From a virus, in the UHGV virus genome UHGV-1376702: a stretch of DNA of 44,254 nt. One strand, given 5' to 3'. Shown here piece after piece: positions 7,262-24,543 of the stretch; the stretch's first letter is position 1; each line of letters begins with the position of its first letter. The notes under the pieces were generated by a model. The model ran no database searches. It was given only the letters and a program-made list of their open reading frames with translations, and was not told where the DNA came from. Made by a program: the position numbers and the translations under genes.

Positions 7262-7723
7262 ATGTCTATGAACATCAAATATGACACAACATCCCCTAGC
7301 TGCTTGGTGTGGCTCAAGGGTAGGCGCGCCGGTGCTCCAGCGGGTACCCGCAACACTCGTGGCTACTGGGTGGTACAGGTATCTGGTAGAAAGATACAGG
7401 CACACCGCCTCATCTGGGAACTACACAACGGGCCTATTCCAGACGGATATGTGGTGGACCACATCAACCAAAACCCCAGTGACAACAGATTAGAGAACCT
7501 GCGCTTAGCTACGGTTAGCGAAAACAACTGTAACGCACGCAGGTCTAAGCGGGAACATCCTAGGGGTGTATACTACACTGGCACCTGCTGGCGCGGGGAG
7601 TTCTGGAAGGACGGTAAGCGTTACATGAAGAAGCACAGCTCCTACGAAGTTATCTGCAAGTGGGTACTAGAGAAACGTCAAGAGCAACACAAGGCCTTCA
7701 CCCCGGGGCATGTGTATACCTGA
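7262..7723 (+). CDS. HNH homing endonuclease
   Basis: 153 aa; HRLIWELHNGPIPDGYVVDHINQNPSDNRLENLRLAT matches the HNH_3-type motif of free-standing phage homing endonucleases; RBS AATGAGGA. Confidence 0.8.
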   Translation: MSMNIKYDTTSPSCLVWLKGRRAGAPAGTRNTRGYWVVQVSGRKIQAHRLIWELHNGPIPDGYVVDHINQNPSDNRLENLRLATVSENNCNARRSKREHPRGVYYTGTCWRGEFWKDGKRYMKKHSSYEVICKWVLEKRQEQHKAFTPGHVYT

Positions 7724-8240: not shown

Positions 8241-8260
8241 TGATGTTACAGGAGTAGGAG
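8241..8260 (+). promoter_or_regulatory. conserved motif copy 1 (ATGTTACAGGAGTAGGAG); candidate phage-RNAP promoter
   Basis: One of three identical copies of a 17-19-nt sequence (others at about 29667 and 41572); this copy is intergenic near the putative genome left end. Confidence 0.35.
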
Positions 8261-8527
8261 GGTTTTAGGGCACTATATACACTACTTAATACTAGTCCTT
8301 ACTAGTCCCTACTAGGCACTCACTAGTATGGCCCTGTGCCTACGTAGTAGGCTGCCATAACTACATAGTCACCGCATCACTACGTTCCTTCACTTACGTT
8401 ACGTCACTACGTTCTGCTTTATGTAGTATTAGATAGTATTGGCTAGACGTGGCTAGTATTGGCTACAGCCAGTGTCAGCACAGTGCTATCCCTAGTGGCT
8501 ATCCCTATAATATATAAGGAGTTATAC

Positions 8528-9082
8528 ATGTTACCATCTAGTCGGGCTACGGCTAAAGCCACTGGTAGTACATACTACTACACAGGGAAGCACTGTAAGT
8601 ACCAGCACACGGCAAAGCGCCTCACCAGTTCAGGGGAGTGCTCCGAGTGCTTTAAGATTAGGAGTACCAGCCCAGCTACTAAGGAGCGTATGCGGGAGTA
8701 CCATAAGGTTTATCAGGTACGTAAGGCAGAGGCCTTGAGAGAGTACCGTAAGACACGCCGACCTAAGCACATTATGACAGAGGAGCAATTACAGCGTAAG
8801 GTTCGCCACAATGCGCGATACCGTGCTGCGCGTACTCAATCCGTACCCTCATGGTATGGCGAGTGGGATGAGTTTGTTATGTTGGAGGCTATCGCTTTAG
8901 CAGCCGAGAGGGCGGAGTGTACTGGCATAGCGTGGCATATTGACCATATGCTACCGCTAAAGGCTAAAGAGGTGTGCGGCTTACACTGTGCGGGGAACAT
9001 TCAGGTGATACCCGCAACGCTTAATACACATAAGTGTAACAGGCTGCTATTCACGGAGCCGTTGGAGTGGCTAAAGGCATAA
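8528..9082 (+). CDS. HNH endonuclease with N-terminal zinc ribbon
   Basis: Start refined to ATG 8528 (RBS AAGGAG, TATAAT just upstream); Cys-x-x-Cys pairs near the N-terminus; C-terminal HNH motif AWHIDHMLPLKAKEVCGLHCAGNIQVIPATLNTHKCN. Confidence 0.7.
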   Translation: MLPSSRATAKATGSTYYYTGKHCKYQHTAKRLTSSGECSECFKIRSTSPATKERMREYHKVYQVRKAEALREYRKTRRPKHIMTEEQLQRKVRHNARYRAARTQSVPSWYGEWDEFVMLEAIALAAERAECTGIAWHIDHMLPLKAKEVCGLHCAGNIQVIPATLNTHKCNRLLFTEPLEWLKA

Positions 9083-9088
9083 ACTTGA

Positions 9089-9127
9089 GGTAATACAGTA
9101 CTATAAATGCTGTATTACCTTTTTTTA
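9089..9127 (+). terminator. rho-independent terminator
   Basis: Perfect 10-bp stem GGTAATACAG / CTGTATTACC with an 11-nt loop followed by T7, directly after the HNH gene stop. Confidence 0.6.
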
Positions 9128-9263
9128 TAAAAAGTGCTTGCTTTTTTAAATCTGCTAGGTGTATATTTATCCCATCGAAAGCGATACGGTCTACCGGGTA
9201 GCTCTAGATTCCAGAGTCAACTGGATAAGTAGACAGCCTGATAAGTCATATGAAAAACAGGTA

Positions 9264-9292
9264 TTGACAATAGCAGTAAACGCTTTTATAGT
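9264..9292 (+). promoter_or_regulatory. sigma70-type promoter (TTGACA-N17-TATAGT)
   Basis: Perfect -35 hexamer, 17-bp spacer, 5/6 match at -10; predicted start near 9299-9300. A weaker candidate (TTGCTT-N18-TATATT) lies at about 9138-9167. Confidence 0.6.
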
Positions 9293-9541
9293 TTGAACCA
9301 TGTTGCGGAGCAGTGTAGCGCCTAAAGGTGCTCTGACCACTAACCCTAGATACATGATAGTAGTAAGCGTGCCGGACGTTATCACCGGGGTTCTGAGACA
9401 AACCACACTGTCGAGGCGAGAGCAGCTCGCTCCTCTGAATCGAGGGAACAAGGCGCGGAGAGTATCCCGCAAAGAGCATATAACATAGCGTAGCAGTAAC
9501 AAGGCTGCGCTAGATTATGTTCTCTGAGAGGTAAGAAGATT

Positions 9542-9739
9542 ATGCGCAAAGCAAAGCGTTTAGCTTTACGGCGGAATATGCAGTTATCACTGAATCCCAC
9601 CGACAACGTGCCACTCACTGTGAAGCCAAGTAAACAAGGCCTGAGCTGTGAGCACAGGGTGAGAGGTAAGCAAAAGCAACGTGCTGGCAGTAAACAACCT
9701 TCGGGGTGGTCTACTATGAATGCACAGTTCGGACACTAA
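9542..9739 (+). CDS. small basic protein (hypothetical)
   Basis: 65-aa ORF with RBS GAGAGGTAAG 5-9 nt upstream; very Lys/Arg-rich; coding status uncertain. Confidence 0.3.
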   Translation: MRKAKRLALRRNMQLSLNPTDNVPLTVKPSKQGLSCEHRVRGKQKQRAGSKQPSGWSTMNAQFGH

Positions 9740-9743
9740 TTAC

Positions 9744-9775
9744 AGCCTATAGCATCCTATGGGGTGCTATGTGAA
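9744..9775 (+). promoter_or_regulatory. conserved hairpin element, copy A
   Basis: AGCCTAT + 7-bp stem (AGCATCC/GGGTGCT, one G-U) with 4-nt loop + ATGTGAA; about 40 nt upstream of the start at 9815; second copy at 10533. Confidence 0.4.
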
Positions 9776-9814
9776 GTAATTCGTAAAGTAAACAACCAAT
9801 CAAAGGGGTGCATT

Positions 9815-10399
9815 ATGACTAATTCCACCAATTCAACAGGTAAAGTATTCAAGCTCACCGCTGCTGGCAGCATTCGTAAAGCGCTGGGCGACGTAGTGGA
9901 AGCAAAGCGTAACATCACTATCAGCGCGCTCTTCCACGGCCTGATTAGCAGCAACGTATCATGGGCTACGGATATGCAGCGTAGCGATGCCGCTGACTTC
10001 GATATGGTGCTGCGTACGCTGTTGCCTATCAAGCTCAACAAGGAGTCCGGCAAATATGAGTTCAACGCTAAGAAGTGCTATGTGTCGGCTGAAAAGCTGG
10101 GTATCGAACTGGACACTATGCGTCTGGACTACAAACAAGCTGACAAGCAAGGCCGCGAAGTAATCGTAGCTAGATTTTATAGCTCCTGTATGGCCCTGTA
10201 CGCCGCCGAAGCAGAGCAGGTGAAGAATGACGCACTGGATGCCGATACAGTGCGCCTGCAAGCGCTGGGGCGCGTTAAAAACGCTATTAAGAAGGCTAAA
10301 GAGACTGGCGTAAGCGATGCTGACCTCGTGTCTATGCTGGTATCGCAAGGCGTGGACGTACGCGCTGTACTGGACGCAACTTTGAAGGCAGCGGCATAA
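9815..10399 (+). CDS. hypothetical early protein
   Basis: Start refined to ATG 9815 (RBS AAAGGGG); 195 aa; no recognisable motif. Confidence 0.55.
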   Translation: MTNSTNSTGKVFKLTAAGSIRKALGDVVEAKRNITISALFHGLISSNVSWATDMQRSDAADFDMVLRTLLPIKLNKESGKYEFNAKKCYVSAEKLGIELDTMRLDYKQADKQGREVIVARFYSSCMALYAAEAEQVKNDALDADTVRLQALGRVKNAIKKAKETGVSDADLVSMLVSQGVDVRAVLDATLKAAA

Positions 10400-10532
10400 T
10401 TTATAAAGTTCCGGTTATCAAGTGGTGGGCCTTGTGCCCTGCGGCCAACGATGCCGACGCTTTCGATATCCCTGTGCGGGCAATAGCTCAAAAATGGGTG
10501 TACGAGGGATTGGGCGAGTATCTCTAGTGGCA

Positions 10533-10564
10533 AGCCTATAGCGTCCTACGGGACGCTATGTGAA
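10533..10564 (+). promoter_or_regulatory. conserved hairpin element, copy B
   Basis: AGCCTAT + perfect 7-bp stem (AGCGTCC/GGACGCT) with 4-nt loop + ATGTGAA; about 25 nt upstream of the start at 10589; compensatory A:T to G:C change relative to copy A. Confidence 0.4.
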
Positions 10565-10588
10565 TGCAACTGGCGTATGAGGTGGCAT

Positions 10589-10810
10589 ATGAAAGCAATA
10601 CTGGTTTATCCGGGTCATGAACTCTGGCCCGTGTGGTGCAATCGCAAGTACGACGAATACAACTACACTGTGGTTATATTCTCTGACAAAGACACCAATC
10701 AGGAATCCCCATTCGAATTTGTGGATACCTACACCGAAATGGCTGCCCGCACTGTGCTGGACGCCGTTAATCTTGGCATCATCACCGATTGGAGACAACT
10801 ATATGGTTAA
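10589..10810 (+). CDS. hypothetical small acidic early protein
   Basis: Start refined to ATG 10589 (RBS GAGGTGG); 73 aa, Asp/Glu-rich. Confidence 0.5.
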   Translation: MKAILVYPGHELWPVWCNRKYDEYNYTVVIFSDKDTNQESPFEFVDTYTEMAARTVLDAVNLGIITDWRQLYG

Positions 10811-11066
10811 TGTATTCAACATCATTGTGACCAGCGCTATGCTGGTGCTGGGCAACGACGTAAACAACCCAATCCCATACTGCACAGTGCAGTTGCAGCA
10901 ACCCGCAACGCAGGAACCGCAGCCGCGCCCTGAGTATGACCTCTTTGAAGACCCCGAGGGCGGCTGCAAAGAGCTAGGCGCGCGTATTCTTGCCGCGGTG
11001 CAGGAGCAGTACCCGGACGCCGCCGTTACGCTTACGGTGGACGGTAAGAGCAACAGCGATATTTGA
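10803..11066 (+). CDS. hypothetical small early protein
   Basis: In-frame ATG 10803 overlapping the previous stop (ATATGG); hydrophobic N-terminus then acidic Pro/Gln/Glu-rich region; the upstream part of track ORF 10617..11066 overlaps the previous gene out of frame. Confidence 0.45.
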   Translation: MVNVFNIIVTSAMLVLGNDVNNPIPYCTVQLQQPATQEPQPRPEYDLFEDPEGGCKELGARILAAVQEQYPDAAVTLTVDGKSNSDI

Positions 11067-11144
11067 GGTTGGGCATGCACGGAAAGAATCCTGAGACGCT
11101 GCTAAAGCTAGGCTGCACCCAACCACTCCTACTGGGAGGCTCAC

Positions 11145-11489
11145 ATGATGACGGTAGATGAAGCTGCTGTTTTCATGTGGAAGCTGCTGGAAACGCAGGG
11201 CAAGTGCGGGTGCCCTTGGGGAACATTCAAAGAGGTTCCTAATGAACTCAAGCAAATCATACCGGTCGAGCGCAGACTCCTCCGTGTTCGTAGGCAGGAC
11301 TCTACGGTGGTGCTCACAACCTATCGCGAGTATACAGAATCTGCCGCGCGGCAGTTGCAAGAGCACATTCAGTTCGATGTGGTTGCAGCACTGCTACGGT
11401 ACGGGTATCGTGGAGCATATACAAGATTTAGGGCGGCAGTACGGGCATATTATAAGCAAGCGCAGATCGCTGCATGGTACGCACGCTGA
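11145..11489 (+). CDS. hypothetical early protein
   Basis: 114 aa; RBS GGAGG before ATGATG; protein-like composition, unlike the overlapping frame. Confidence 0.5.
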   Translation: MMTVDEAAVFMWKLLETQGKCGCPWGTFKEVPNELKQIIPVERRLLRVRRQDSTVVLTTYREYTESAARQLQEHIQFDVVAALLRYGYRGAYTRFRAAVRAYYKQAQIAAWYAR

Positions 11490-11538
11490 CTTAGTGGTTG
11501 GCGATGAACTCAAAGAACCTATTCAGGAGCAAACTAAA

Positions 11539-13215
11539 ATGCAAGAGACTAACACAGCACCTATCGAATGGAAAATCGTATTACCGGAAGGTGCAAACGC
11601 ACTGCCGATTAAAGAATCAATGTATTCCAGCGGTGATTACTGGACCCCGTTCCAGGACTTGCAAATGCAAGGGGAGGACCATCCCCACACTGAGGGTCCG
11701 CTGCAGGTGCTTATGGGTCTCCGCACTGTCAGTGCGCACACTCCAGGCTTAGAGGTGACTATAGGCGGGGCACTGCACCCAGAGTATCGCGAATCAACGA
11801 TGACGCTCGGCCCGTTGCAAAAGGTGGACCTGTACCGGTCCGGAACTTTCTGCGAACTCTTTGAACCGGTGCGAATCACCATAGACAGCAAGTTCTGGGA
11901 ACGCCGCCGCGACTTCTATGAGGGCGAGGATGTAGTGGTTGAGCGCGTAGTTGCTTGCGTCGAAGAATTCACAGGTTACAAGGTGCACAAGCAGGCCGTG
12001 CAGTTATTTGAGCGCATCATGCTTGCACCAGAAGAGCAGCAGCGCCGCTTATACACTGGCTACGATTACGGCCGCCACACCCGCGATGGCAACTTAGCTG
12101 CGCTGCTCATGAAGTTGCACGGATTCATAGTATCTAGATTCGCCGTGCCATTGGGCTTTGGTTTCCGCAACGGTGAGCCTATCGTGATGCTGGGGCAGCC
12201 GCGGATGCACAAGGACTTCGCCGCAGTTACCGAGTACCGTTGTGTGGAGATGCGCGTAGGTAAGTGGCTCGCTAACTACTACGGCAATGGCGTAGACTTC
12301 CGCGATGCTATCGAAGACCTCAAGGCTATGAACGTAGAGCCTACAACGTACCTGTGCAAGACCGAGCAGGAATGGTACGACTCCTACGAGAATGGCCCGA
12401 GTAGCTGCATGAGTGGATACTCATTTGAGCATAGCCCGGTGCGGGTGTATGCTACTACCAGCCACGGGCTGCCGGACAACGGGCTGCGCCTGTTCATCCA
12501 GTACACCGGGGAACTGTTCGGGGATGACTTCGAAGTGCAGGCACGGGCAATCGTTAACACAGAAACTAACGAGTACGTCCGCGCTTACGGCAACGCTGCG
12601 GATGCAATCCTGCGGGGGCATGGGTACACCAAAAACATTGAATGTCTCGAAGGGGTAATGCTGGCGCGAATACCGCACCCAACATACAACGGCGCAGTGC
12701 TGATGCCATACCTAGATAGCAGCCAGTGCGGCGTAGATGAGTATGGGGATGATGCCTTTGTAATCCGTGATGCTTATGAGTACGAGGCACAAGACTCAGA
12801 AGGATACATCTACGTAGGCACTGAGTCTGCTGGGTGCTGCTGCTGTGAATGTCGCTACTCTGTAGATGACATGCAGGAGACCGCAGATGGTGATATGGTC
12901 TGCGACGGCTGCGTAGAAGAAGGGGATTTTGTGTACGTAGTTGGGCGTGATGGTCTGCATAATCGCTGGAGCTGCACCTGGTCTGATTACCACGACGCCT
13001 ATGTATACGACGAGGACATAGAGCGCTGCGAAGTAGAGGGTGTAGTGCACGACCAAGAGGAACTGGTGTTTGCACAGGACCGGCAAGTGCTTATTGAACA
13101 CGCAGAAGAACACCCAGTGCACGGGTTAATTCTCACTGAGCATGCAGCTGATTGCTTGGGAGAGAAGTACCTGGGAAACGATGAAGATGAAGAAGAAGCA
13201 GAGGAGGCAGCTTAA
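11539..13215 (+). CDS. large early protein of unknown function (Cys cluster, acidic C-terminal tail)
   Basis: Start refined to ATG 11539 (RBS AGGAGC); the 127-codon 5' extension in the track has junk-like composition. 558 aa; CCCCEC and CDGC clusters near the C-terminus; ends NDEDEEEAEEAA. Confidence 0.55.
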   Translation: MQETNTAPIEWKIVLPEGANALPIKESMYSSGDYWTPFQDLQMQGEDHPHTEGPLQVLMGLRTVSAHTPGLEVTIGGALHPEYRESTMTLGPLQKVDLYRSGTFCELFEPVRITIDSKFWERRRDFYEGEDVVVERVVACVEEFTGYKVHKQAVQLFERIMLAPEEQQRRLYTGYDYGRHTRDGNLAALLMKLHGFIVSRFAVPLGFGFRNGEPIVMLGQPRMHKDFAAVTEYRCVEMRVGKWLANYYGNGVDFRDAIEDLKAMNVEPTTYLCKTEQEWYDSYENGPSSCMSGYSFEHSPVRVYATTSHGLPDNGLRLFIQYTGELFGDDFEVQARAIVNTETNEYVRAYGNAADAILRGHGYTKNIECLEGVMLARIPHPTYNGAVLMPYLDSSQCGVDEYGDDAFVIRDAYEYEAQDSEGYIYVGTESAGCCCCECRYSVDDMQETADGDMVCDGCVEEGDFVYVVGRDGLHNRWSCTWSDYHDAYVYDEDIERCEVEGVVHDQEELVFAQDRQVLIEHAEEHPVHGLILTEHAADCLGEKYLGNDEDEEEAEEAA

Positions 13216-14261
13216 TGTTCTTGAATCCGCATGGGATTGATATGCAGCTGCTCTTGCAGATACTGCGAACGCACCGGCCTAGCTGGGCAAGCACTAAGTG
13301 GTTCGATCCGCTGCTTATGCAGGCGCTGGGTAGTGGTATGCACTACGTAAAGGATAAGCACGGGAACTACTTCGTGCTGGTGGGGGACTCAGAGCAAAGT
13401 GATGTAGCGTTTACGTCTCATCTCGATACGGTGGCCCGCCCAACCAGCGCTGCACCGGACGTCGGCTGCACTAACAAGGGCGTGCTGTTCGTAAAGAATC
13501 CGCAACAAGCTGACTGCTTGGGGGCGGACTGCGGTGCCGGTGTCTACCTGATGCTGGAGATGCTGCGGCGGGGTGTGCACGGACGCTACTGCTTCTTCGT
13601 GGATGAGGAGGTTGGCTGCGAAGGCAGCGCTGCATCGGTCAAGGATGACACTGGATTTTGGACTGGTGTCAAGGCGATGATTAGCTTTGACCGCCGCGGA
13701 GATGGTATCATTACGCACCAGCGGTACATGCGCTGCTGCTCTGATACCTTTGCCAAGACTCTGGCAGAGCGCCTAGGACGCACGGAGCAGCACTTACAAA
13801 AGGGTGTGTATACTGACTCAGCCGAGTTCGTCGGCATCATCCCTGAGTGCACCAACGTCGGTGTAGGGTACATGCACGAGCACACTCCGGATGAGGTGCT
13901 GGACCTGAACATCCTGGGGAAAGTGCTTGAGCGGGTACTGCAAGATGGTACGTTCTCGCACCTTCCGATTGAGCGGGACCCGAAGGTAGTAGAGCCGGAC
14001 CAATGGCTCTCAGCATCGACGCTCAGTTTACGGCAGCCATGGGATATGCCGCCAGACGAGGACCCGCAATTGCTGGCAGCGTTCCGTGTAGTGTCGCAGC
14101 TTTCTAAACAACAACTGGTTAGCTGGGTGCAGGAGAATCCAGAGAAGGCGGCGGAGTACATAATGGTGTTCTCCGATTACGGCTTTAAAGAAGAACTGAT
14201 TGAATTAGGCACCCGAGTCGTAGAAGACTGGGGTGGATACGATAATATTGTGGAGGGTTAA
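13215..14261 (+). CDS. di-zinc metallopeptidase-like protein (clan MH, M20/M28/M42-like)
   Basis: 348 aa; ordered motifs SHLDTV (His-x-Asp), GADCGAG (bridging Asp), DEEVGCEGS (Glu-Glu), FDRRGDG, GYMHEH match the metal-ligand pattern of M20/M28 aminopeptidase/deacylase folds; recognised by eye only. Confidence 0.45.
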   Translation: MFLNPHGIDMQLLLQILRTHRPSWASTKWFDPLLMQALGSGMHYVKDKHGNYFVLVGDSEQSDVAFTSHLDTVARPTSAAPDVGCTNKGVLFVKNPQQADCLGADCGAGVYLMLEMLRRGVHGRYCFFVDEEVGCEGSAASVKDDTGFWTGVKAMISFDRRGDGIITHQRYMRCCSDTFAKTLAERLGRTEQHLQKGVYTDSAEFVGIIPECTNVGVGYMHEHTPDEVLDLNILGKVLERVLQDGTFSHLPIERDPKVVEPDQWLSASTLSLRQPWDMPPDEDPQLLAAFRVVSQLSKQQLVSWVQENPEKAAEYIMVFSDYGFKEELIELGTRVVEDWGGYDNIVEG

Positions 14262-14263
14262 TT

Positions 14264-14722
14264 ATGTCTAATTTTAAAGTTGGTGATAAAGTTGTGCGTA
14301 CAGTTGAGAGCAAAACGTTCTGGCTCATTCAAGGCGTTAAGAATTATTACATTGTAACGGATGTTGGCGCAGGTGGTTACTGGTTACAGTTGGATGGGGT
14401 GCGAGATAAGGAGGACCCCCGTCCGTGGTACGCGCCAAACTTCGAACTGTACCAAGAGCCCGAGGACGAGGAGCTGCCGCCGGTTCCAGCCAGTGTAACC
14501 TACGTGAACTCCAAGCGCGATTCTGGAAATGACCAGCGCCTAGTCCTTGATAAGGACAACGGTGAAGGGGAAGGATTAATGTACATCGGAGTAATCCCTC
14601 GCAAGGGAAGTACTCGAGCACAGATGGAGATTGGGATTAACATCGACCCTGATTCAGCCCTGCAGTTGGCGCACGACCTGCGCCGCATGGCTATGGATAT
14701 CAAACGTAAGGAGAAAGCATAA
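14264..14722 (+). CDS. hypothetical protein
   Basis: 152-aa ORF; A+T-rich 5' half relative to the surrounding genome; no motif. Confidence 0.45.
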   Translation: MSNFKVGDKVVRTVESKTFWLIQGVKNYYIVTDVGAGGYWLQLDGVRDKEDPRPWYAPNFELYQEPEDEELPPVPASVTYVNSKRDSGNDQRLVLDKDNGEGEGLMYIGVIPRKGSTRAQMEIGINIDPDSALQLAHDLRRMAMDIKRKEKA

Positions 14723-14910
14723 TGAAAGTAAAAGCTCTAGAAAATAGCCCAGAGAACTTTCTGTTCACGGACAGAACCTATACCTTAATTAACGTAAAGG
14801 ATGGTCGCGCCACTATAAAAGATGATTTAACCAATTTAACTACGGTGGTTAAAGTGGAGCGAATTTTACTCACAGAGGGTAACGCTACCGATGGACCAGC
14901 CCTGGCTTAG
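14722..14910 (+). CDS. hypothetical small protein
   Basis: 62-aa ORF; start overlaps previous stop (TAATG); A+T-rich. Confidence 0.35.
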   Translation: MKVKALENSPENFLFTDRTYTLINVKDGRATIKDDLTNLTTVVKVERILLTEGNATDGPALA

Positions 14911-15676
14911 AGCGTGCAAGCGCCTGGCCGTGGGGCAGAGGGCACGCTTTCGGTGCTGCGGCAGGGACGCCGCCGGGGTGCTCTACAATAACCCGGATGC
15001 CTGGGAATACTATTGCCACCGCTGCAAACAGGTGGGCAAGGAGCACAAGCAGTACCAGCGCATACAGTTACAGGAAGAGCCGAGGGTGCAGCCCTCTGCA
15101 CCTGCAGATGCAATTTGCATTAGCCAAGCGCCTGCGGAAACGCAGAGTTTTATTTACGGATTCCTGACCACAAAGGGAATCATGCCTGAAATGGTGGAGG
15201 ATGCAGAATGGAGCAAAGAGAAACAGCGGATAATCTTCCGTGTCGGAAGCGCTGCTCTAGGCCGTGCAGTGCATGCTCGGCAGCAACCGAAGTGGGTAAT
15301 GTACGGCCAGCCAATAGCTTTCGCTGTCGCGGCACCTGCCGTAGCACCGGCTGTAGCTGCGGCCGCACCTCTAAAGGTCGTGCTCACCGAGGACTTACTC
15401 TCAGCCCGGAAGATACAGCACGCAGTTACGAGCTACAGTGCGTTGAACGTGCAGGCTATAGCTATGCTGGGTACACGCTTGCCCACGCCGCTGAGGGCTT
15501 GGCTGATACAGAATCGCCCGGAAGTGATTCTGATGCTGGACAATGACCCAGCAGGGCACGCTGGAGTAGCGGCGGCGCGCCGCGCACTGCGTCCGTTCAT
15601 GCAGTGTCGTGAGCATTACTTCGCTGCGGACCCGAAGGATGCAGAAATCAAAGAGATTCTGGAGGCTTTACAATGA
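14891..15676 (+). CDS. DNA primase (zinc ribbon + TOPRIM)
   Basis: 261 aa; N-terminal CCG...CHRC zinc-ribbon; TOPRIM-like acidic motifs (VVLTEDLL and ILMLDNDPAGHAG). Confidence 0.75.
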   Translation: MDQPWLRACKRLAVGQRARFRCCGRDAAGVLYNNPDAWEYYCHRCKQVGKEHKQYQRIQLQEEPRVQPSAPADAICISQAPAETQSFIYGFLTTKGIMPEMVEDAEWSKEKQRIIFRVGSAALGRAVHARQQPKWVMYGQPIAFAVAAPAVAPAVAAAAPLKVVLTEDLLSARKIQHAVTSYSALNVQAIAMLGTRLPTPLRAWLIQNRPEVILMLDNDPAGHAGVAAARRALRPFMQCREHYFAADPKDAEIKEILEALQ

Positions 15677-15867
15677 ATATGGGTATCTGGGTTTTAATCA
15701 TGGCGATTAATGGCAGTGCGGTTAGCGACACAGACTTCGCTGCGCTAACCACTCAAGAGTTCACAACGGAGGCTGCCTGCAACAAGGCGGCCAAGGCGTT
15801 CGAAGAGAAGTTTGACACATTCAGGGTGTATACCGCTAAAGCAATCTGCGTTCCGAAGGAGGTTTAA
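15673..15867 (+). CDS. small protein with signal-peptide-like N-terminus
   Basis: 64 aa; hydrophobic N-terminus MNMGIWVLIMAINGSAVS; overlaps primase stop. Confidence 0.35.
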   Translation: MNMGIWVLIMAINGSAVSDTDFAALTTQEFTTEAACNKAAKAFEEKFDTFRVYTAKAICVPKEV

Positions 15868-16305
15868 TTGGACCTAATAGGTGATTGCATAGACCACGGG
15901 AGAAAGGGCAACCACAATGGGTATGGAGTAACCTCGTGGCCTGGAAACAGGAAACGCACAGCACTGAAACACAGGGTTGTGATGGCTAATAAATTAGGCG
16001 TCCCATTGGAGGCAATAAGCGGAAAGGTTGTCAGGCATAAGTGTGACAATCCCCGCTGTATAAACCCGGACCACTTAGAACTTGGCACTCAACTTGACAA
16101 CGTAGAAGATGCCAGAAAGAGGGGCCGGGTTTCTAGTGGCTCAAGACACTACAAGGCAACTGTTTCAGCGGACTTGATACAGTGGGTACGTGATGTGTAC
16201 GTAAAGCGCAGCAAAGAGTACAACCAGTACGCCTTAGCCAAGAGACTGGGAGTATCCCGCTCGTGTATAAACAACTGGCTCAACAACTACACTAGGGGTG
16301 GGTGA
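15868..16305 (+). CDS. HNH homing endonuclease
   Basis: 145 aa (TTG start after RBS AGGAGG); motifs CIDHG, HR, VRHKCDNPRCINPDHLELGT...N shared with four paralogues in this window. Confidence 0.8.
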   Translation: MDLIGDCIDHGRKGNHNGYGVTSWPGNRKRTALKHRVVMANKLGVPLEAISGKVVRHKCDNPRCINPDHLELGTQLDNVEDARKRGRVSSGSRHYKATVSADLIQWVRDVYVKRSKEYNQYALAKRLGVSRSCINNWLNNYTRGG

Positions 16306-17588
16306 GTATGGATTTAATAGTTGTGCGTGCGATGTGCACGCAGAAGGTTTGGAACCGACTGCGAGAGCAGATTCCTAAGTCGATGCTTGCGCCGGATACG
16401 TCGAACCTTCTGGACTGGGTGGGGCTGTACTGGAACACGTACCCGGAGCACCAGGAGGTGCAATGGGATGCGATGCAGAGCATGCTCAACCTCCGGGCGG
16501 GGCACCTATCCCGGGAAGAGCGGGTAATCATGGACGAGCTTATGCGGGGAGTACAAGCCGTGCCGCAGGATTCTGTGGTGGGGATTGTCCAGACCCTGAA
16601 TGAGCTGGCCTACAGCGGGGAGGTAGCAGCGCTGACGCAGCGCTACCAAGACGGTGAGGAGATTGATTACCTGCTGGAAATGAAGCACCTACAGCGCAAG
16701 TACGGTGACGGCGCTGCGGTGCATGATTCGCTGCTTGAATGGGAGAGCGGTAGTGTTGACGAAATACTTGCCGCGACTGACGAGAGCGGAGGTCTTAAAC
16801 TGGGCGTGTTCGAGCAACTCTCTAGCAACATCCGGGGCCTACGCGGCGGGGACTGCATCGCAGTGGCTGCCCCTGTGGACTCTGGTAAAACTAGCCTGCT
16901 TGCTGCTATTGCTGTGGACTTTGCTGAGCAGATGCAGCAGCAGCCGGAAGTATACGGGGACCGCCCGATTCTCTGGCTGGTTAACGAGGGTCCGGCGACG
17001 CGTACGGTGCCGAGGGTATATCAAGCGGCGCTGCACTGGACTCTGGCAGAGATTAAGGACAGGCACAGTAAGCAAGAGTTCGTGCCAGCCTACCTCAAGA
17101 AAGTAGGCAGGGCTGACCGGATTCGTGTTAAGGCTGCGCACTCCTTGACGATGGCGCAGATATCCACGCTCATGGAGGAGATGCGCCCTGCGGTAATCAT
17201 CATCGACATGGTGGCGAACATCCGTGGCGGCACTATGGAGACCGAGCACCAGAACCTCGAGGCGAAATGGCAGGAGCTGCGCATACTTGGGTGCGAGAAC
17301 GACTGCGCTATTGTAGGCACTATGCAGCTTTCACTCGAAGGTTACAACATGCTGTTCCCGCCGCTCACCGCTATGAAGCAGAGCAAGATTGGCGTACAGG
17401 GTGCCCTGGACTTGGCTATTATGATGGGATGCTTGGACAGAAACGAGCAGCCGCACATGCAAAACGTCCGTGGTATCAGTACTCCGAAGAACAAGATGGC
17501 ACTGTCTGGTAAAGAGTCGCTACTGCAATTCGAGGTGGGATTCGAGCCGGGTCGTTGCCGCTTTGACGAGGGCCAGATTAACCGGTGA
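16302..17588 (+). CDS. replicative DNA helicase (DnaB/T7 gp4-like)
   Basis: 428 aa; Walker A (VAAPVDSGKTSLL), Walker B-like (VIIIDMVANI). Confidence 0.8.
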   Translation: MSMDLIVVRAMCTQKVWNRLREQIPKSMLAPDTSNLLDWVGLYWNTYPEHQEVQWDAMQSMLNLRAGHLSREERVIMDELMRGVQAVPQDSVVGIVQTLNELAYSGEVAALTQRYQDGEEIDYLLEMKHLQRKYGDGAAVHDSLLEWESGSVDEILAATDESGGLKLGVFEQLSSNIRGLRGGDCIAVAAPVDSGKTSLLAAIAVDFAEQMQQQPEVYGDRPILWLVNEGPATRTVPRVYQAALHWTLAEIKDRHSKQEFVPAYLKKVGRADRIRVKAAHSLTMAQISTLMEEMRPAVIIIDMVANIRGGTMETEHQNLEAKWQELRILGCENDCAIVGTMQLSLEGYNMLFPPLTAMKQSKIGVQGALDLAIMMGCLDRNEQPHMQNVRGISTPKNKMALSGKESLLQFEVGFEPGRCRFDEGQINR

Positions 17589-17640
17589 CTTCCCTAGCGC
17601 CTTCTCTGAGGGCGCTATGTAGGTACAATAGGAGGCTACT

Positions 17641-17796
17641 ATGCTTAAACCGTCAGACATTAACTACCTCGATGAAGAGGTAATCAAGGCGTACGCTGCA
17701 TCTGCAGGTACTTTCCGTAAACAGTTTGCACTGGACAGCAGCCAGCTGATTGTGCATCTGGCGATTAATAAGGCTCGGAGGGCTAATTGGAAATGA
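17641..17796 (+). CDS. hypothetical small protein
   Basis: 51-aa ORF with strong RBS AGGAGG; its stop overlaps the ATG of the next HNH gene (ATGA). Confidence 0.35.
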   Translation: MLKPSDINYLDEEVIKAYAASAGTFRKQFALDSSQLIVHLAINKARRANWK

Positions 17797-18242
17797 CAGG
17801 TTGTATTGACCACGGACAGAAGGGAAGCACTTGCCGAGGAAAGGGCGCTGGGTATGGCCGCTCCAGATTTGACGGGAAGACAACTGGCAGCCACCGCAAA
17901 GCATACTGTGTAGCTCACAACTTGAAGCTGAGCGATATCGCGGGACTTGTAGTCCGGCATTCGTGCGACAATCCTCGGTGCATAAATCCGGAGCACCTGC
18001 TACTAGGGACTTCTAGCGATAATATGCAGGACCGAAATAAAGGTGCGCGTAATTTGCTGGGCAGCCGCAACCCTGCTGCCAGACTTACCCCAGAAGACGT
18101 GCACAGCATACGAGAAGCATACGCTGGCGGTGAGACCCAGGTATCTATAGCGAGACGCTTCGGGACAAGTCAAGGATACATATCTAATATCATAAAGGGG
18201 AGGGTATGGAATGAGCAGAAGCATCCTGATAACGGATTATGA
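17793..18242 (+). CDS. HNH homing endonuclease
   Basis: Motifs CIDHG, HR, VRHSCDNPRCINPEHLLLGT...N; track start 17787 is TTG, ATG at 17793 is more likely. Confidence 0.8.
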   Translation: MTGCIDHGQKGSTCRGKGAGYGRSRFDGKTTGSHRKAYCVAHNLKLSDIAGLVVRHSCDNPRCINPEHLLLGTSSDNMQDRNKGARNLLGSRNPAARLTPEDVHSIREAYAGGETQVSIARRFGTSQGYISNIIKGRVWNEQKHPDNGL

Positions 18243-20610
18243 GACGCAAAACCACCCATATTACGGTAGTGTTGCTTCCCCGTACTGTCCGGATAATTAC
18301 ATCGTAGAATCAGCGTGGCGTATTGACCGCACGCACGATGACGGTACGGTAGAAGTAGGCCCCGTAGAGAGTGTACGGTATAACAGTCGCGCGCACTTTG
18401 AAGCGGCACCTGTATCAGAATGGCTCCCAATACCAGCTGACTGTTGGCTGATTGTGGCTCACAACGCCGCATATGAGATTAGCTGGTTCCTAACCTTTGC
18501 GCGCGCCGAGTTTGAGGCCTTCCTAAAGCGGGGAGGTCGCGTATTCTGTACGATGCATTCTGAGTACATCGCCTCGGACTTTCAGAGCATGTATCCGTCG
18601 CTGGACGAGACGGCTCCTAAGTACGGTGGTACGCACAAAGTAGACGGGGTTAAGCTTCTGTGGGAGCAGGGTGTGCTAACTTCCCAGATTGACCCGATGC
18701 TGCTGCATGACTACCTGGTTAACGGGGACATCCCGAACACGGCCCTGTGCTTCTACGGCCAGTGCGCTACGTTCGCCCAGCGCAATCAGATGCAGTACGT
18801 GTGGGAGCGTATGGATGCCTTGCTGGCTTGGGCGTACTGCGAATGGTTCGGCCTGTTCGTTAATATGCCAATTGCACGCAAGAACCAGGAGGAGCAGGAG
18901 CAGCGCATCCGTGAGATTAAGCAGGAACTGCAGCAGTACATCCCGAAGGACTTACCAGAGACGCTAGATTTCAACTTCGGGTCGGACTTCCATATGTCAG
19001 CACTGGTGTACGGCGGGCCTATCAAGTACCGCAAGAAGGTGCCATATGACCCGCCGCAGTACGTCAAGGCCGACTTCTATAAGTACGAGGACGGAGAGGG
19101 TGCGCACACCTATATACCTGTACACGACACGCACATGCAAGAACTTCAAACGGAAGGCGGATGGTGGCGTGTAGTGACATATCGTGCGGGTAAGAACAAG
19201 GGGCTACCCAAAGTATTCCGCCTAGACACCGAGGAGGAGAAGCTAAAGTGGGAAGATGACCTTTACTTCTGCCCGGGCCTAGTGAACATACAGGAGCTGC
19301 CGGAAGTTATCCGGGAGAAGTATGCAGAGCGTGGAGAGTTCCGACAGGCGCGCACCATGCAGGACGGTACGCCAGTATACAGCACCAGCACTGACGCAAT
19401 GGAGGCGCTAGCCCGCCAAGGGTTCGAGTTCTGTAAGTTGGTGAATGAGCTGGCGGCGCTGGAGAAGGACACTGGAACTTACTACTTGCGTGAAGTTCTG
19501 GACGCAGAGGGTAAAGTCAAAGAGCGGAAGGGTATGTTACAGTACGTAATCCCTGAGCGTCCTGATGGTTCTGGCATCATACACCACCGACTGAATACAT
19601 GCGCCACCGTAACCGGGCGCCTGAGTAGCTCTAACCCGAACCTGCAGAACCTACCCCGACCGGATGAAGACGGGGATGGGGTAGCTAAATCCAAGGTGAA
19701 GCAGGTATTCACCAGCCGATTCGGGGATAACGGACGCATCACTGAGGTTGACTACTCGGCGCTGGAAGTGGTTATGTCCTGTGTGCATACGGGGGACACC
19801 AAACTACTGGGGCTGCTGCAGGGCGGCACGGATATGCACTGTTACCGCCTAGCTTTCCGCGAGGAACTGCCGTATGAAGAAGTGTATGAGCGCTGCCACA
19901 ACAAGAAGCACGAGCTGCATCCGCTTTGGAAGGCAATGCGTACAGGTATTAAGGCTCCTAGCTTCGCAGCCCAGTATGGCGCTACGGCTAAGGGGATTGC
20001 GTTTGCTACTGGATGTACGGTGGAATTCGCACAGGCTTTCTTGGACAACGAGGCTGCGCTGTTCCCGCAAACAATTGGCTTCCGCGCTGTTATCAAGGAA
20101 GAAGTAGAGCGCACCGGGGCAGCCGGGCGCATGTACCGCGAGCAGGCTGACGATGGCAGCTACCGAGTCTACCGCATCGGGACGTGGACTAGCCCAGCAG
20201 GTGCCCGCTATAGCTTCCGCCAGAAGGAGCAGTGGAAAGAGGTTGTGCCTGGGCAGCGTAAGCAGAAGGTAATGGACTACAAGGAAACAGAGATGGCTAA
20301 CTACTGGTGCCAGGGGGAAGCATTCTTCCTGATGGCGGTAGCCGCCGGTATGGTTCTGCGTGCACTCCTGGCCCGTGACTGGTTCGACAATCAGGTGTGC
20401 CTGATTACGAACGTGCACGATGCGTTGTATCTGGACAGCGCCAACCCGGAGGTTGGACGTGAGGCGAGCCTGCTGGTTAAGCAGTGCATGGAGGATGCAC
20501 CTAAGCGTATTCACCAGCTCTGGCCTAACTACGGCATCATTGGTGAGGTCCCGTTCCCAGCAGAGGCTGAGATGGGTACGAGTATGTACAGTAAGGAGAA
20601 GGTAGAATGA
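18211..20610 (+). CDS. DNA polymerase, family A (T7 gp5-like) with 3'-5' exonuclease domain
   Basis: 799 aa; exo motif ILITDYETQN; pol motif A (EVDYSALEVV), motif B (R..IKAPSFAAQYG), motif C (VHDALY); TGRLSSSNPNLQNLP. Confidence 0.9.
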   Translation: MSRSILITDYETQNHPYYGSVASPYCPDNYIVESAWRIDRTHDDGTVEVGPVESVRYNSRAHFEAAPVSEWLPIPADCWLIVAHNAAYEISWFLTFARAEFEAFLKRGGRVFCTMHSEYIASDFQSMYPSLDETAPKYGGTHKVDGVKLLWEQGVLTSQIDPMLLHDYLVNGDIPNTALCFYGQCATFAQRNQMQYVWERMDALLAWAYCEWFGLFVNMPIARKNQEEQEQRIREIKQELQQYIPKDLPETLDFNFGSDFHMSALVYGGPIKYRKKVPYDPPQYVKADFYKYEDGEGAHTYIPVHDTHMQELQTEGGWWRVVTYRAGKNKGLPKVFRLDTEEEKLKWEDDLYFCPGLVNIQELPEVIREKYAERGEFRQARTMQDGTPVYSTSTDAMEALARQGFEFCKLVNELAALEKDTGTYYLREVLDAEGKVKERKGMLQYVIPERPDGSGIIHHRLNTCATVTGRLSSSNPNLQNLPRPDEDGDGVAKSKVKQVFTSRFGDNGRITEVDYSALEVVMSCVHTGDTKLLGLLQGGTDMHCYRLAFREELPYEEVYERCHNKKHELHPLWKAMRTGIKAPSFAAQYGATAKGIAFATGCTVEFAQAFLDNEAALFPQTIGFRAVIKEEVERTGAAGRMYREQADDGSYRVYRIGTWTSPAGARYSFRQKEQWKEVVPGQRKQKVMDYKETEMANYWCQGEAFFLMAVAAGMVLRALLARDWFDNQVCLITNVHDALYLDSANPEVGREASLLVKQCMEDAPKRIHQLWPNYGIIGEVPFPAEAEMGTSMYSKEKVE

Positions 20611-20828
20611 GTATAAAGTCTGGCAGTGTTGTGGAGTTGATGGACCTGGGGCCTGAGCCGATAGACCCGCGGTATGCAGCATACTTCGCCCCGGGTACGA
20701 GGCACACGGTTATGTTCTTCGACCCGGTTACTGGGGAGATAGAACTAAGTTATCCTGGACTAGTAGTAAGTAGACCGGGGGATGGTGTTACCTTCTTCCC
20801 GGGGGAGTACAAGCTTATCGTGGAATAG
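20607..20828 (+). CDS. hypothetical small protein
   Basis: 73-aa ORF overlapping the DNA polymerase stop (ATGA). Confidence 0.4.
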   Translation: MSIKSGSVVELMDLGPEPIDPRYAAYFAPGTRHTVMFFDPVTGEIELSYPGLVVSRPGDGVTFFPGEYKLIVE

Positions 20829-20931
20829 TGATAGGTGGACCCTTGGGTGGTGTAGGGGGTTAGGGTAGCATGGAAATACACTGGGGTCAACTAAATAATT
20901 AAATAAAATTATTTGTTGACTCTAGCTTGAT

Positions 20932-20946
20932 TCTGTGATTCACAGA
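20932..20946. promoter_or_regulatory. perfect 15-bp palindrome TCTGTGA-T-TCACAGA (operator-like)
   Basis: Read directly; lies in the 160-bp intergenic region upstream of HNH gene 20990, next to a TTGACT hexamer and an A+T-rich tract. Confidence 0.3.
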
Positions 20947-20989
20947 GAATTAATGTGATACGAGTAGGAACAACACAAGAGGATACCGA

Positions 20990-21424
20990 ATGTCGATGTG
21001 TATTGACCACGGGTATAACAAATGCCTTAACAAGAACGGATACCGCCGGGCATGGTATAAGCCGACCAGGCGATTGGAGCTGCTGCATCGGGTGGTGTAT
21101 GCTGAGCATAACGGGCTGGATATAAGGGCGCTGGCTGGCCTGTCTGTTAGACATACCTGCGATAACCCCAGGTGCATTAACCCTAAGCACTTAGTATTGG
21201 GAACGCATATGGATAATATGCGGGACCGTGCAGAGCGCGGAAGGAACCCAGATGTGCGTGGGGATAGGAACCCAAAAGCGCAGTTAACTTGGGATGCTGT
21301 GCAGGATATCAGGGATAACTATATCCCATACAAGAAAGGTATGCGGCAACACTTTGCTAATAAGTACGGTGTAGGTGTACATGTAATTAGTGACGTAATA
21401 AGTAACAGGAGCTGGAATGCCTAA
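20990..21424 (+). CDS. HNH homing endonuclease
   Basis: 144 aa; RBS AAGAGGA; motifs CIDHG, HR, VRHTCDNPRCINPKHLVLGT...N. Confidence 0.8.
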   Translation: MSMCIDHGYNKCLNKNGYRRAWYKPTRRLELLHRVVYAEHNGLDIRALAGLSVRHTCDNPRCINPKHLVLGTHMDNMRDRAERGRNPDVRGDRNPKAQLTWDAVQDIRDNYIPYKKGMRQHFANKYGVGVHVISDVISNRSWNA

Positions 21425-22397
21425 GTTAAACACAATAAAGCTATTCACCAAAGAGCAACACATAGATATCTTGAGCAAGCACAGCTCTAACGTGGATGCT
21501 GCTGCCGCCTATAATAAGCTGGCGGGACTGGACGAGCCAGTGGTGTATCGACAGATGGTGAAGTACTGGCGCAGCATATTCCTAGACCACGCTGGGAGCA
21601 AGGGTAAGGCAATATCACACATGAAGGAGGCACTAAAGCTCATACAGCCCAGTCCCACTGATGACATCGGCAAAACCTTCGTGCCGGAAGTGTGCCACCG
21701 TATTCTCGTAGTTGGGGATTTGCATGCCCCCTATACGCACGTAGATGCTATGGCCTTCTTAGAATCTGTGCGAGACGCCTACTGTCCGGACATGGTTGTA
21801 CAGGTAGGCGACGAGACGGACGGCCACGCTATATCATTCCACGAAAGTAACCCGAACCTGGATAGCGCCGGGGTGGAGCTGGAGAAAGCTAAGCTCGTAC
21901 TGGAGGAGCTACATGAACTGTTCCCGAACCTATTGGTTTGCGATTCCAATCACGGCAGTCTGGTTTACCGCAGGGCGAAAGCTCACGGGCTACCAGTGCA
22001 ATTCATCAAGAAGTACCGAGATATACTTTTCCCTGAACATGGTGCCCCGGCGTGGTCTTGGGCTGACGCGTGGGTACTCAATACCCCACTTGGCCCGGTT
22101 AGATTCCAGCATCAAGTGTCGGGTGACTTCATGCTCAACGCTAGCCACGAAAGAACCAGCCTTGTCCTTGGTCACGAACATGGTCGCTTTGAGGTGCAAT
22201 ATGCAGCTAGCTCAACAGCTTTGTACTTTGGTGCGTATGCTGGGTGTCTGATTGACCGTAAGAGCATGGCCTTTGCTTACGGCAGACTCACCCGCAAGAA
22301 ACCAATCCTGGGTGTGATGGTAATCACCGAGGGTTGCCCGCAGTTAATTCCGATGCTGCTTGACGACGATGGTCGTTGGGTTGGTCGTACTAAATAA
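21417..22397 (+). CDS. calcineurin-like metallophosphoesterase
   Basis: 326 aa; GDLH ... GDETD ... CDSNHG motifs in canonical order (GDxH, GDxxD, GNH). Confidence 0.6.
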   Translation: MPKLNTIKLFTKEQHIDILSKHSSNVDAAAAYNKLAGLDEPVVYRQMVKYWRSIFLDHAGSKGKAISHMKEALKLIQPSPTDDIGKTFVPEVCHRILVVGDLHAPYTHVDAMAFLESVRDAYCPDMVVQVGDETDGHAISFHESNPNLDSAGVELEKAKLVLEELHELFPNLLVCDSNHGSLVYRRAKAHGLPVQFIKKYRDILFPEHGAPAWSWADAWVLNTPLGPVRFQHQVSGDFMLNASHERTSLVLGHEHGRFEVQYAASSTALYFGAYAGCLIDRKSMAFAYGRLTRKKPILGVMVITEGCPQLIPMLLDDDGRWVGRTK

Positions 22398-22407
22398 CAC
22401 AGAGGTG

Positions 22408-22578
22408 ATGATGAAAATGGGAATCTGTTCTGTACTGGGCCTTATCTTTGTAACCTTGAAACTGACTGGCGTTATCGCCTGGTCCTGGTTGTGGGTGCTG
22501 CTCCCGTTCTGGGGGCCTATGGCACTCGGCGTAATCCTAGTGTTCTTGGCGGTGGCCCTCAAAGCTGCCTCCCGCTAA
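22408..22578 (+). CDS. small membrane protein (two predicted TMDs)
   Basis: Start refined to ATG 22408/22411 (RBS AGAGG); about 56 aa; hydrophobic segments ICSVLGLIFVTL and MALGVILVFLAVAL. Confidence 0.4.
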   Translation: MMKMGICSVLGLIFVTLKLTGVIAWSWLWVLLPFWGPMALGVILVFLAVALKAASR

Positions 22579-22629
22579 GCCCTGCATCTGCACGTAAATA
22601 TCATTCAAACTAAACGAGGAAGTAATTAT

Positions 22630-23418: not shown

Positions 23419-23471
23419 TCAACCCTAACCTAAACTAATACGGCCCCTCCTAGGGGCCTTAGAGGAAGCCT

Positions 23472-24540: not shown

Positions 24541-24543
24541 AGA

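Follow-up and report, generated by a model that had tools for sequence, protein, structure and literature searches.

In phage lambda, the pL promoter is followed by a leader of more than 200 nucleotides (nt) that contains nutL and then by gene N, and in phage T7 a long early leader with the RNase III site R0.3 lies upstream of gene 0.3. The put elements of phage HK022 (putL and putR) are cis-acting antiterminator RNAs of approximately 70 nt, which form two stem-loops in a V shape together with a triplex (PMC9378689). Here we analyze an early locus that resembles each of these systems in some respects, in the virus genome UHGV-1376702 (44,254 nt; this whole stretch of DNA is referred to below as the window). 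A sigma70-type host promoter is followed in this genome by a leader of about 245 nt (9297-9541) which is, with high confidence, a functional structured RNA, and then by ORF2, an open reading frame (ORF) whose small, basic product belongs to the KP34 gp01 family. The window represents the complete genome of a KP34-like Klebsiella podophage (Drulisvirus, Autographiviridae), in which every gene is encoded on the plus strand; the assembled sequence is circularly permuted, and the genome itself is linear with terminal repeats. In the initial annotation, made from the sequence alone, the entire interval from the promoter to the gene start at 9815 was regarded as a candidate noncoding RNA (ncRNA) or long structured leader. 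Comparative analysis upholds this proposal for 9297-9541, given the near-invariance of the sequence and the compensatory changes across genera, and overturns it for ORF2 and for the last 75 nt (9740-9814).

Promoter, structure and conservation of the leader

The host promoter, previously recognized as nearly perfect, is the best sigma70-like site between 7000 and 12000 and the only one with 11 of the 12 consensus positions between 9200 and 29199. By their number alone, promoter-like sites around the locus do not exceed the chance expectation (4 found vs 5.1 expected). The promoter is credible because of its score combined with the presence of a TTGACA-type promoter, with the -35 box directly upstream of the element, at the equivalent place in every relative examined; a host promoter has been annotated or published there for LIMElight, SU552A, NTUH-K2044-K1-1, F19 and SU503 (including Eriksson 2015, PMC4411677). 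From the promoter spacing, transcription is predicted to start at 9297-9300. The terminator reported upstream is likewise borne out as an intrinsic-terminator-like hairpin with a T run (Table 1), which closes the preceding ORF and insulates the early promoter from upstream read-through.

The leader contains 12 helices (at least 10) arranged in three parts, namely, a 5'-terminal domain, a core of the type denoted here type 1, and the long terminal hairpin Pf, a possible RNase III or stability element (Table 1). The 5' domain consists of one irregular hairpin of approximately 60 nt without branches, and the covariance model derived for it (R1) accordingly has 0 branch points. Its closing helix P1 starts at the predicted +1 position of the promoter, with the same layout in all relatives, so that the 5' end of the RNA would be base-paired.

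The comparative analysis against related phages, which the initial annotation had named as a way to check its proposal, strongly supports this structure. RNAalifold analysis of 31 distinct full leaders predicted 52 base pairs, of which 22 show compensatory changes on both sides; standard pairs occupy 97.4% of the cells compared with 88.3% in shuffled alignments, and the covariation score is 0.285 vs 0.115+-0.007, a value that none of 500 shuffles reached and from which slid registers remain far removed (at most 0.041). For the 5' domain, 52 distinct copies representing both cassette types described below could be aligned: 11 of the 17 pairs are changed on both sides, 95.9% of cells are paired vs 84.9% after shuffling, and covariation reaches 0.395 vs 0.175+-0.010 (again 0 of 500 shuffles; slid registers at most 0.109). 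Single positions of the leader show up to five pair types, for example, GU, AU, UA, CG and GC in P1, and a stepwise series of compensation is seen in which GUACC/GGUAC passes through a U.G intermediate to GCACC/GGUGC. In the core, the Pa variants CCGG/CCGG, CCCG/CGGG and CCUG/CAGG were read directly as patterns instead of through a core covariance model, since the loop gaps of the LIMElight group are misplaced by MAFFT. An A-U pair of Pb is replaced by G-C in 12 of the 31 copies. The inverted repeat GCGAG-AGCAG-CTCGC noticed in the initial annotation is Pc (G9415-G9420/C9426-U9431), with an A-U to U-A swap in 10 of the 31. Pd shows C-G to A-U changes in 6 copies and U-A to C-G in 1, and Pe shows G-C to A-U in 2. 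Finally, Pf displays U-A to A-U swaps in 5-6 of the 31 leaders as well as U.G to C-G and G-C to G.U changes.

When read on the minus strand, only 85.7% of the cells pair, as opposed to 97.4% on the plus strand, because 199 cells are G.U pairs, the complements of which are C.A mismatches. It is the plus-strand RNA that adopts this structure, and its fold is kept by compensatory substitutions.

Among the 20 distinct Drulisvirus copies that we aligned for the coding tests, pairwise diversity is 0.00-0.045 over 9370-9489 vs 0.10-0.28 in ORF2. The core is approximately 77% identical between the Klebsiella phages and the Pantoea and Erwinia phages, whose ORF2 proteins are 35-38% identical to that of the window. 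Judging from these alignments, the sequence of the leader RNA is far more constrained than the gene it precedes. The loops and junctions, including the junction GAACAAGGC between Pd and Pe, are invariant far beyond the needs of pairing, and their invariance from Klebsiella to Pantoea and Erwinia phages suggests recognition by a conserved partner.

An explanation without any RNA function would invoke a role of the DNA itself (in ejection or entry, in replication, or as a recombination site) or a recent recombinational sweep. The region is indeed mosaic, with boundaries at ~9362 and 9665-9724, and belongs to the first DNA that enters the cell. However, neither version accounts for pairing that is maintained by compensation across genera and that on the other strand would include the C.A mismatches, and a sweep cannot produce 0-4% diversity next to 10-28% within one cassette or the ~77% identity to the Pantoea and Erwinia phages. 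We consider an explanation of this kind highly improbable.

Between the promoter and the gene at 9815, there are, as stated in the initial annotation, two plus-strand ORFs of at least 25 amino acids (aa), ORF1 and ORF2. ORF1 had been interpreted as either a leaderless mRNA or noncoding, and it is the latter option that stands. The former, a leaderless mRNA for a 62-aa peptide, is suggested by the ATG located at the predicted start site in the window phage, but this ATG is present in 4 of the 20 relatives, whereas 16 of the 20 contain in-frame stops. The variable columns are distributed 14/12/16 by codon position, that is, without periodicity, ORF1 has no PHROG or Pfam match, and in the divergent copies of the leader no plus-strand frame stays open throughout. 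By these comparative measures, ORF1 is not protein-coding, and the probability that we assign to a leaderless peptide is close to nil; together with the DNA-level role, it is essentially excluded. An antisense or alternative-frame ORF through the leader was rejected too, given that neither a preserved frame nor, for the minus-strand ORFs in the 20-copy alignment, codon periodicity was found.

ORF2 presents the opposite picture. Its 198 nt are intact in all 20 relatives, with 21/14/48 variable columns by codon position, and synonymous differences equal or exceed nonsynonymous ones in nearly every pairwise comparison. The protein matches PHROG 32970 over its full length (E = 4e-45), and its C-terminal motif VRGKxKxKGSSKxPxGW..QFGH is common to PHROG 6352 (the type of KP34 gp01), to LIMElight ORF1 and to the homolog in Zoomie; no homolog in Pfam or the PDB and no named one was detected. 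As initially described, ORF2 has a ribosome-binding site, a Shine-Dalgarno (SD) sequence, and encodes a very basic 65-aa product (pI 11.9; 14 lysines and arginines, 6 of these within the first 14 aa), which is probably disordered. ORF2 is already annotated as a coding sequence (CDS) in KpV41, NER40, KpV2883 and other genomes, and the alignments identify it as a genuine conserved gene of the KP34 gp01 family, encoding a small basic protein. Hence, the interval is not the ~500 nt without a convincing gene that had been proposed: ORF2 is convincing once relatives are compared, it is conserved as an ordinary protein, and the noncoding unit is about half the proposed length, consisting of the ~245 nt of 9297-9541, apart from a 75-nt spacer (9740-9814) with a separate hairpin. 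In some GenBank records of relatives, hypothetical CDSs are placed over the leader (e.g., Henu1_2 Gp1, minus strand 903-1142), and others omit gp01. The patterns of conservation imply that CDS calls laid over the leader, including those on the minus strand, are probably spurious and that gp01 is real.

Table 1. Features of the early region of the window and related elements
Feature	Positions	Strand	Details
HNH_3 homing-endonuclease gene	7262-7723	+	Pfam E = 1e-22; just before the inferred genome end at ~7757
Strong KP34 RNA polymerase promoters of the validated type	8241-8256, 29667-29682, 41572-41587	+	3 exact copies, no others in the window
Short direct repeats in the noncoding left-end region	8285-8330, 8430-8470	+	tactagtcc/tactagtccc/tactaggc; tattggctag, 2-3 times
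Inserted ORF	8459/8529-9082	+	184-207 aa; start probably at ATG 8529; SD (AAGGAG) and terminator of its own
Intrinsic-terminator-like hairpin and T run	9087-9127	+	14-bp stem 9087-9121, 7-nt loop, T run to 9127
Host sigma70 promoter TTGACA-N17-TATAGT	9264-9292	+	11/12 consensus matches
5'-terminal hairpin domain	9297-9358	+	P1 9299-9303/9352-9356 and A9297-U9358
5'-domain inner helices	P2 9307-9309/9344-9346; P3 9312-9313/9340-9341, 9315/9338; P4 9318-9321/9328-9331	+	
ORF1	9300-9488	+	62-aa frame overlapping the leader RNA; not a gene by comparative tests
Type-1 core	9367-9472	+	Pa, Pb, Pc, Pd, junction GAACAAGGC, Pe
Candidate closing helix	9367-9370/9544-9547	+	4 bp; covers bases just after the AUG
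Pa (CCGG)	9372-9375/9385-9388	+	
Pb	9397-9399/9410-9412	+	
Pc	9415-9420/9426-9431	+	Loop AGCAG
Pd	9432-9435/9442-9445	+	Abuts Pc directly
Pe	9455-9458/9467-9470	+	After the invariant junction GAACAAGGC
Pf, long terminal hairpin	9473-9525	+	~19 bp, interrupted by internal loops; ends 2 nt upstream of the ORF2 SD
ORF2 (KP34 gp01 family)	9542-9739	+	65 aa; SD AGAGG 9527-9531; AUG 9542-9544
Block D, copy 1 (32-nt motif)	9744-9776	+	Stem 9748-9757/9762-9771, loop UAUG
First large early gene	9815-10399	+	PHROG 5277; downstream boundary of the leader locus
Block D, copy 2	10535-10566	+	UAGCGUCC-UACG-GGACGCUA; flanked by a 43-aa gene (10396-10527) and the gene at 10577

Distribution, cassettes and possible functions of the leader

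Exactly one 5' domain is found per related locus examined, whichever core type follows, and the covariance model R1 matches the window once (9290-9366; 60.9 bits, E = 2e-16). The domain comes in window-type, KpV41-type and LIMElight-type variants and in those of Zoomie and of the metagenomic copy L081. Copies of the core were identified in Klebsiella Drulisviruses, Pantoea phage LIMElight, Erwinia phage Zoomie and five metagenomic contigs; in Zoomie and LIMElight, the core is unannotated and lies approximately 1.2 kb from the genome end. An exact scan for the core motif yielded 4 matches in genome contigs, all attributable to chance, and in metagenomes 3 chance matches along with 5 new divergent copies, whereas all 21 new loci matching the relaxed motif GAGGCGNGAGCAGCNCGC in viral contigs were chance hits. 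The gapped 5'-domain pattern occurs in at least 120 loci, and among the matches listed, the covariance model upheld only contigs consistent with KP34-like phages (~21-44 kb). A blastn search (word size 11) of 50,697 phage records with the core and the LIMElight leader returned KP34-like phages only. The same type of search against 5,426 E. coli genomes and 72,556 plasmids gave no match, so mimicry of a host or plasmid RNA was rejected. Rfam 15 produced 0 matches for the whole window at the gathering score and 0 at E<=10 for 9200-9830 with permissive filters, and ARAGORN detected no tRNA or tmRNA; on the strength of these negatives, a known ribozyme, riboswitch or small RNA class was rejected as well. 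In the full-text literature, including the genus-level papers, we found no description of such a leader RNA. The leader appears to be an undescribed phage RNA element that belongs to no named family.

The leader and the gene behind it vary as cassettes. In the type-1 cassette, the core of the window is combined with a gp01 protein beginning MRK(A/R)KR, whereas type 2, found in KP34, SU552A and others, combines a different core (diversity 0.16-0.3) with a gp01 beginning MKYREKL. From one type to the other, the core changes in concert with the first ~40 codons of gp01, whereas both types have the 5' domain and the C-terminus of gp01 in common. Homology between the types resumes at ~9665, the start of the shared C-terminal motif, and the recombination boundaries of the region are sharp (~9362 and 9665-9724). 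The type-2 leader also covaries, with 16 of 64 pairs compensated, and is built in the same way: the 5' domain leads into hairpins, the sequence (A/U)AACAAGG comes after a 4-bp hairpin, and a long terminal hairpin precedes the SD. Sequence similarity between types 1 and 2 is weak but significant (z=4.1). Because both types are structured, a structured early leader is a general feature of the clade, of which the window carries the most conserved version.

Several natural variants alter the type-1 leader. In NER40 (L043), 19 nt are missing from the apex of Pf (9488-9506 of the window), the metagenome copy L081 carries a hairpin of ~17 nt inserted in the Pe loop, and PBKP05 (L053; the record is marked 'UNVERIFIED') is devoid of ACAAGGCGCGG and has a 10-nt insertion after Pa. 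The sites of these changes are dispensable or tolerate variation. LIMElight-type leaders (~1205-1222 in LIMElight) and that of Zoomie (~1175-1192) contain an additional hairpin with a GNRA tetraloop between the 5' domain and the core, the stem of which is flipped between the two (GGC-GAAA-GCC vs GCC-GCAA-GGC); an A-rich linker takes its place in the Drulisviruses. Loops of the GNRA class are frequently engaged in tertiary contacts.

The position of the leader within the genome bears on its possible role. By homology to KpV41, the physical left end of the genome corresponds to approximately 7757 of the window, which places the locus in the left-end early region. The gene for the phage RNA polymerase (RNAP; 27193-29661, Pfam RNA_pol) lies 17.9 kb downstream. 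The experimentally validated promoter of the KP34 RNAP is T(A/G)ATGTTACAGGAGTA (Lu 2019, PMC6834552). Of its three copies in the window, the one at the left end is S2 (TGATGTTACAGGAGTA), and of the S1-type copies, one immediately follows the RNAP gene and the other is in the structural region. This restriction of validated phage promoters to three sites implies that the early and DNA-metabolism genes (~9.3-27 kb) are first read by the host RNAP, which is a stressed peculiarity of phiKMV/KP34-like phages (Lu et al., PMC6834552). The S2 copy points into the early region from ~1 kb upstream of the sigma70 promoter, in a manner reminiscent of T7 phiOL. Late in infection, phage-RNAP transcripts starting there would also include the leader.

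As a whole, the locus is best explained as a cis-acting structured 5' leader of the main early transcript, a reading to which we give an even chance. Under this model, the sigma70 holoenzyme of the host would synthesize the leader from the promoter at 9264-9292 as the 5' end of the main early transcript, and the RNA would fold as it emerges, with P1 burying the 5' end and protecting the transcript from 5'-end-dependent decay. The leader contains more G than C and is ~60% paired, and is therefore not rut-like; within its 245 untranslated nt, it would leave little unstructured C-rich RNA on which Rho could load. The invariant loops and junctions might bind a conserved partner, namely, host RNAP or Nus factors and/or the arginine/lysine-rich N-terminus of gp01, and this binding would sustain transcription by the host RNAP across the ~18 kb that precede the phage RNAP gene, in a put-like or N/nut-like fashion. 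A role on the elongating complex in cis is favored by the ~18 kb of host transcription and by the swapping of the core together with the gp01 N-terminus while the C-terminus remains common. Taken separately, action in cis rather than as a released RNA seems to us slightly the better choice, and service in antitermination or processivity specifically is a tentative suggestion.

The main rival is a trans-acting early ncRNA of approximately 225 nt, released by cleavage at Pf (e.g., by RNase III, as at R0.3 of T7), that would bind or decoy a host factor such as a defense nuclease, RNase E/Hfq or RNAP before any phage protein is made. Loops and junctions more invariant than pairing demands, in an RNA more conserved than the protein that follows, are what one would expect of such a molecule, which would be the first product of the only strong host promoter; the combination of a 5' helix with a long 3' hairpin is typical of stable RNAs, and the accessibility of the SD disfavors a purely translational role. 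However, there is neither a terminator nor a demonstrated processing site between the leader and ORF2, the apex of Pf is deleted in NER40, and no similarity to host or plasmid RNAs, Rfam family or identifiable target emerged from our searches, whereas the constant fusion to gp01 fits a role in cis equally well. We regard a released RNA as unlikely.

Somewhat less probable still is an autoregulatory operator or riboswitch-like leader that controls translation of gp01 only, through binding of gp01 or a ligand to the core, for example, by means of the candidate 4-bp closing helix over the codons just after the AUG. That the core type and the N-terminal type of the arginine/lysine-rich gp01 covary as a cassette is compatible with such control. 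The closing helix itself, which is weakly supported, is paired in 98% of the cells (GC 19, GU 6, AU 3), including 3 double changes to A-U, and the AUG is partly paired in the fold predictions, but 2 cases are broken and the 3' strand is constrained by coding. Moreover, the ORF2 SD is predicted to be unpaired (0.57-0.93) in 7 of the 9 leaders, the exceptions being LIMElight and L081, the gene context offers no hint of a ligand class, and a near-invariant RNA of 245 nt appears excessive for repression of a fast-evolving protein of 65 aa.

A number of points weigh against the cis-acting leader of the main early transcript, or against its individual components. The single-sequence folding energy is not unusual (z=-1.1 for the plus strand and -0.2 for the minus strand) and thus uninformative, so that the structure relies on the comparative data. 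The copies represent about five lineages, which leaves a modest number of independent compensatory events, and shuffling exaggerates significance when the sequences are related. Conservation is much lower in the type-2 core, and the NER40 and L081 variants indicate that parts of the leader are dispensable. No convincing plus-strand intrinsic terminators were detected in 9300-29199; hence, any need for antitermination would concern Rho-dependent events only. The predominantly open SD implies that there is no obvious translational switch, and the co-inheritance of the core with the gp01 N-terminus may reflect mere adjacency. Finally, we found no transcript, start-site or processing data for these phages in the full-text literature.

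Neighboring elements and implications

The spacer downstream of ORF2, which the initial annotation had included in a single ncRNA unit, harbors a distinct hairpin motif, denoted block D, that is an element separate from the leader RNA. Block D is universal in Drulisvirus, with more than 120 instances, usually two per genome and all on the plus strand. The second copy in the window differs from the first by A-U to G-C and U.G to U-A changes, and compensatory variants such as GCAUCC/GGGUGC, GCGUCC/GGGCGC and CAUCUC/GAGGUG are seen. The motif AGCCTATAGCGTCCTACGGGGCGCTATGTGAA has been predicted as a phage promoter of Kp34likevirus (Eriksson 2015, PMC4411677). However, it does not serve the KP34 RNAP as an initiation site in vitro (Lu 2019, PMC6834552), and its sequence differs from the validated promoters. 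On account of the in vitro data and the location of the validated promoters, we rejected the promoter assignment; from its pattern of substitutions, block D is more likely to be an RNA hairpin (a processing, stability or protein-binding site) than a promoter.

Upstream of the early promoter, an inserted ORF sits between the left end of the genome and the promoter. The block 8493-9362 is found in few relatives only (L002, L015 and L034), so the segment 8459-9127 looks like a mobile insertion. The product contains an H-x-D-H...N...H string, and one relative has the annotation 'HNH endonuclease' under the match; no Pfam match was obtained at E<=0.01. Short direct repeats (Table 1) are located upstream of this ORF.

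KP34-like phages (Drulisvirus) are among the most used therapy candidates against multidrug-resistant Klebsiella. In these phages, the RNAP gene lies behind the DNA-metabolism genes, which raises the question of how the host polymerase remains productive across all of the early and middle region (PMC6834552), and for this question the leader provides a concrete, mutable target. It is possible, if far from assured, that the leader reprograms the host transcription complex, either put-like by acting on RNAP or N/nut-like together with gp01, or else functions as a cleaved-off RNA decoy. If so, the host RNAP would become resistant to Rho and pausing over ~18 kb and would also drive transcription-coupled genome entry until the phage RNAP is expressed, and the pairs of RNA core and gp01 N-terminus would constitute exchangeable specificity cassettes; the decoy version would make this RNA the first product of the phage, aimed at a host defense or RNA-decay factor. 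The analysis also adds an undescribed RNA family and amends the annotation of the region, in that ORF1-type and minus-strand calls over the leader are probably spurious, gp01 is real, and block D is reread as an RNA hairpin. In phage engineering, the leader should not be casually disrupted by insertion of payloads at the left end.

Comparison with described early leaders

The phage of the window belongs to the same supergroup as T7 and, like T7, has left-end host promoters, a long untranslated leader and an irregular hairpin of ~20 bp (Pf) in front of the ribosome-binding site of the first gene, an arrangement comparable to R0.3. Unlike in T7, the portion of the leader located 5' of this hairpin is a conserved multi-helix RNA, there is no sequence similarity, and the apex of Pf is dispensable in NER40. 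RNase III processing sites of the T7 type are irregular double-stranded hairpins of approximately two helical turns, located just 5' of a gene.

The resemblance to HK022 put extends to the position and origin of the RNA: the leader is structured, lies directly 3' of an early sigma70 promoter, starts a few nt from +1 and is made by the host RNAP at the start of infection, in a phage that depends on the host RNAP for long early transcripts. Two abutting hairpins (Pc and Pd) are present inside the core. Unlike put, the 5' domain is one unbranched hairpin and the whole leader is much longer (~245 nt, 12 helices), no sequence similarity was detected (the blastn search of phage records described above retrieved KP34-like phages only), and the phage is a virulent podovirus of the T7 supergroup rather than a lambdoid one. 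The put RNA binds the zinc-binding domain of the RNAP beta' subunit and suppresses termination and pausing; the leader might act on RNAP in a comparable manner.

In comparison with lambda, gp01 has no detectable homology to N, no strong terminators were found downstream, and the leader and 5'-domain alignments contain no conserved boxA/boxB-like element. The 9-mer CUUUAACAA, which matches the nine 3'-terminal bases of boxA in the E. coli rrn operons (UGCUCUUUAACAA), occurs in LIMElight-type copies only (L056, L078, L083 and L052), in the 5' arm of Pf (~9476-9488), and GCUCUGA is confined to the window-type 5' domain. This arm is paired in the predicted fold, and UAACA is the only part of it that all members of the family retain unchanged; the boxA-like 9-mer is a lead for involvement of NusB/NusE. 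The order of elements is nevertheless that of pL-nutL-N, with a promoter, a leader of more than 200 nt and a first gene whose small product is very basic and rich in arginine and lysine. Furthermore, the two cassette types parallel the N-ARM/boxB specificity classes of lambdoid phages in that a type-specific RNA is combined with a type-specific N-terminus and a shared C-terminus.

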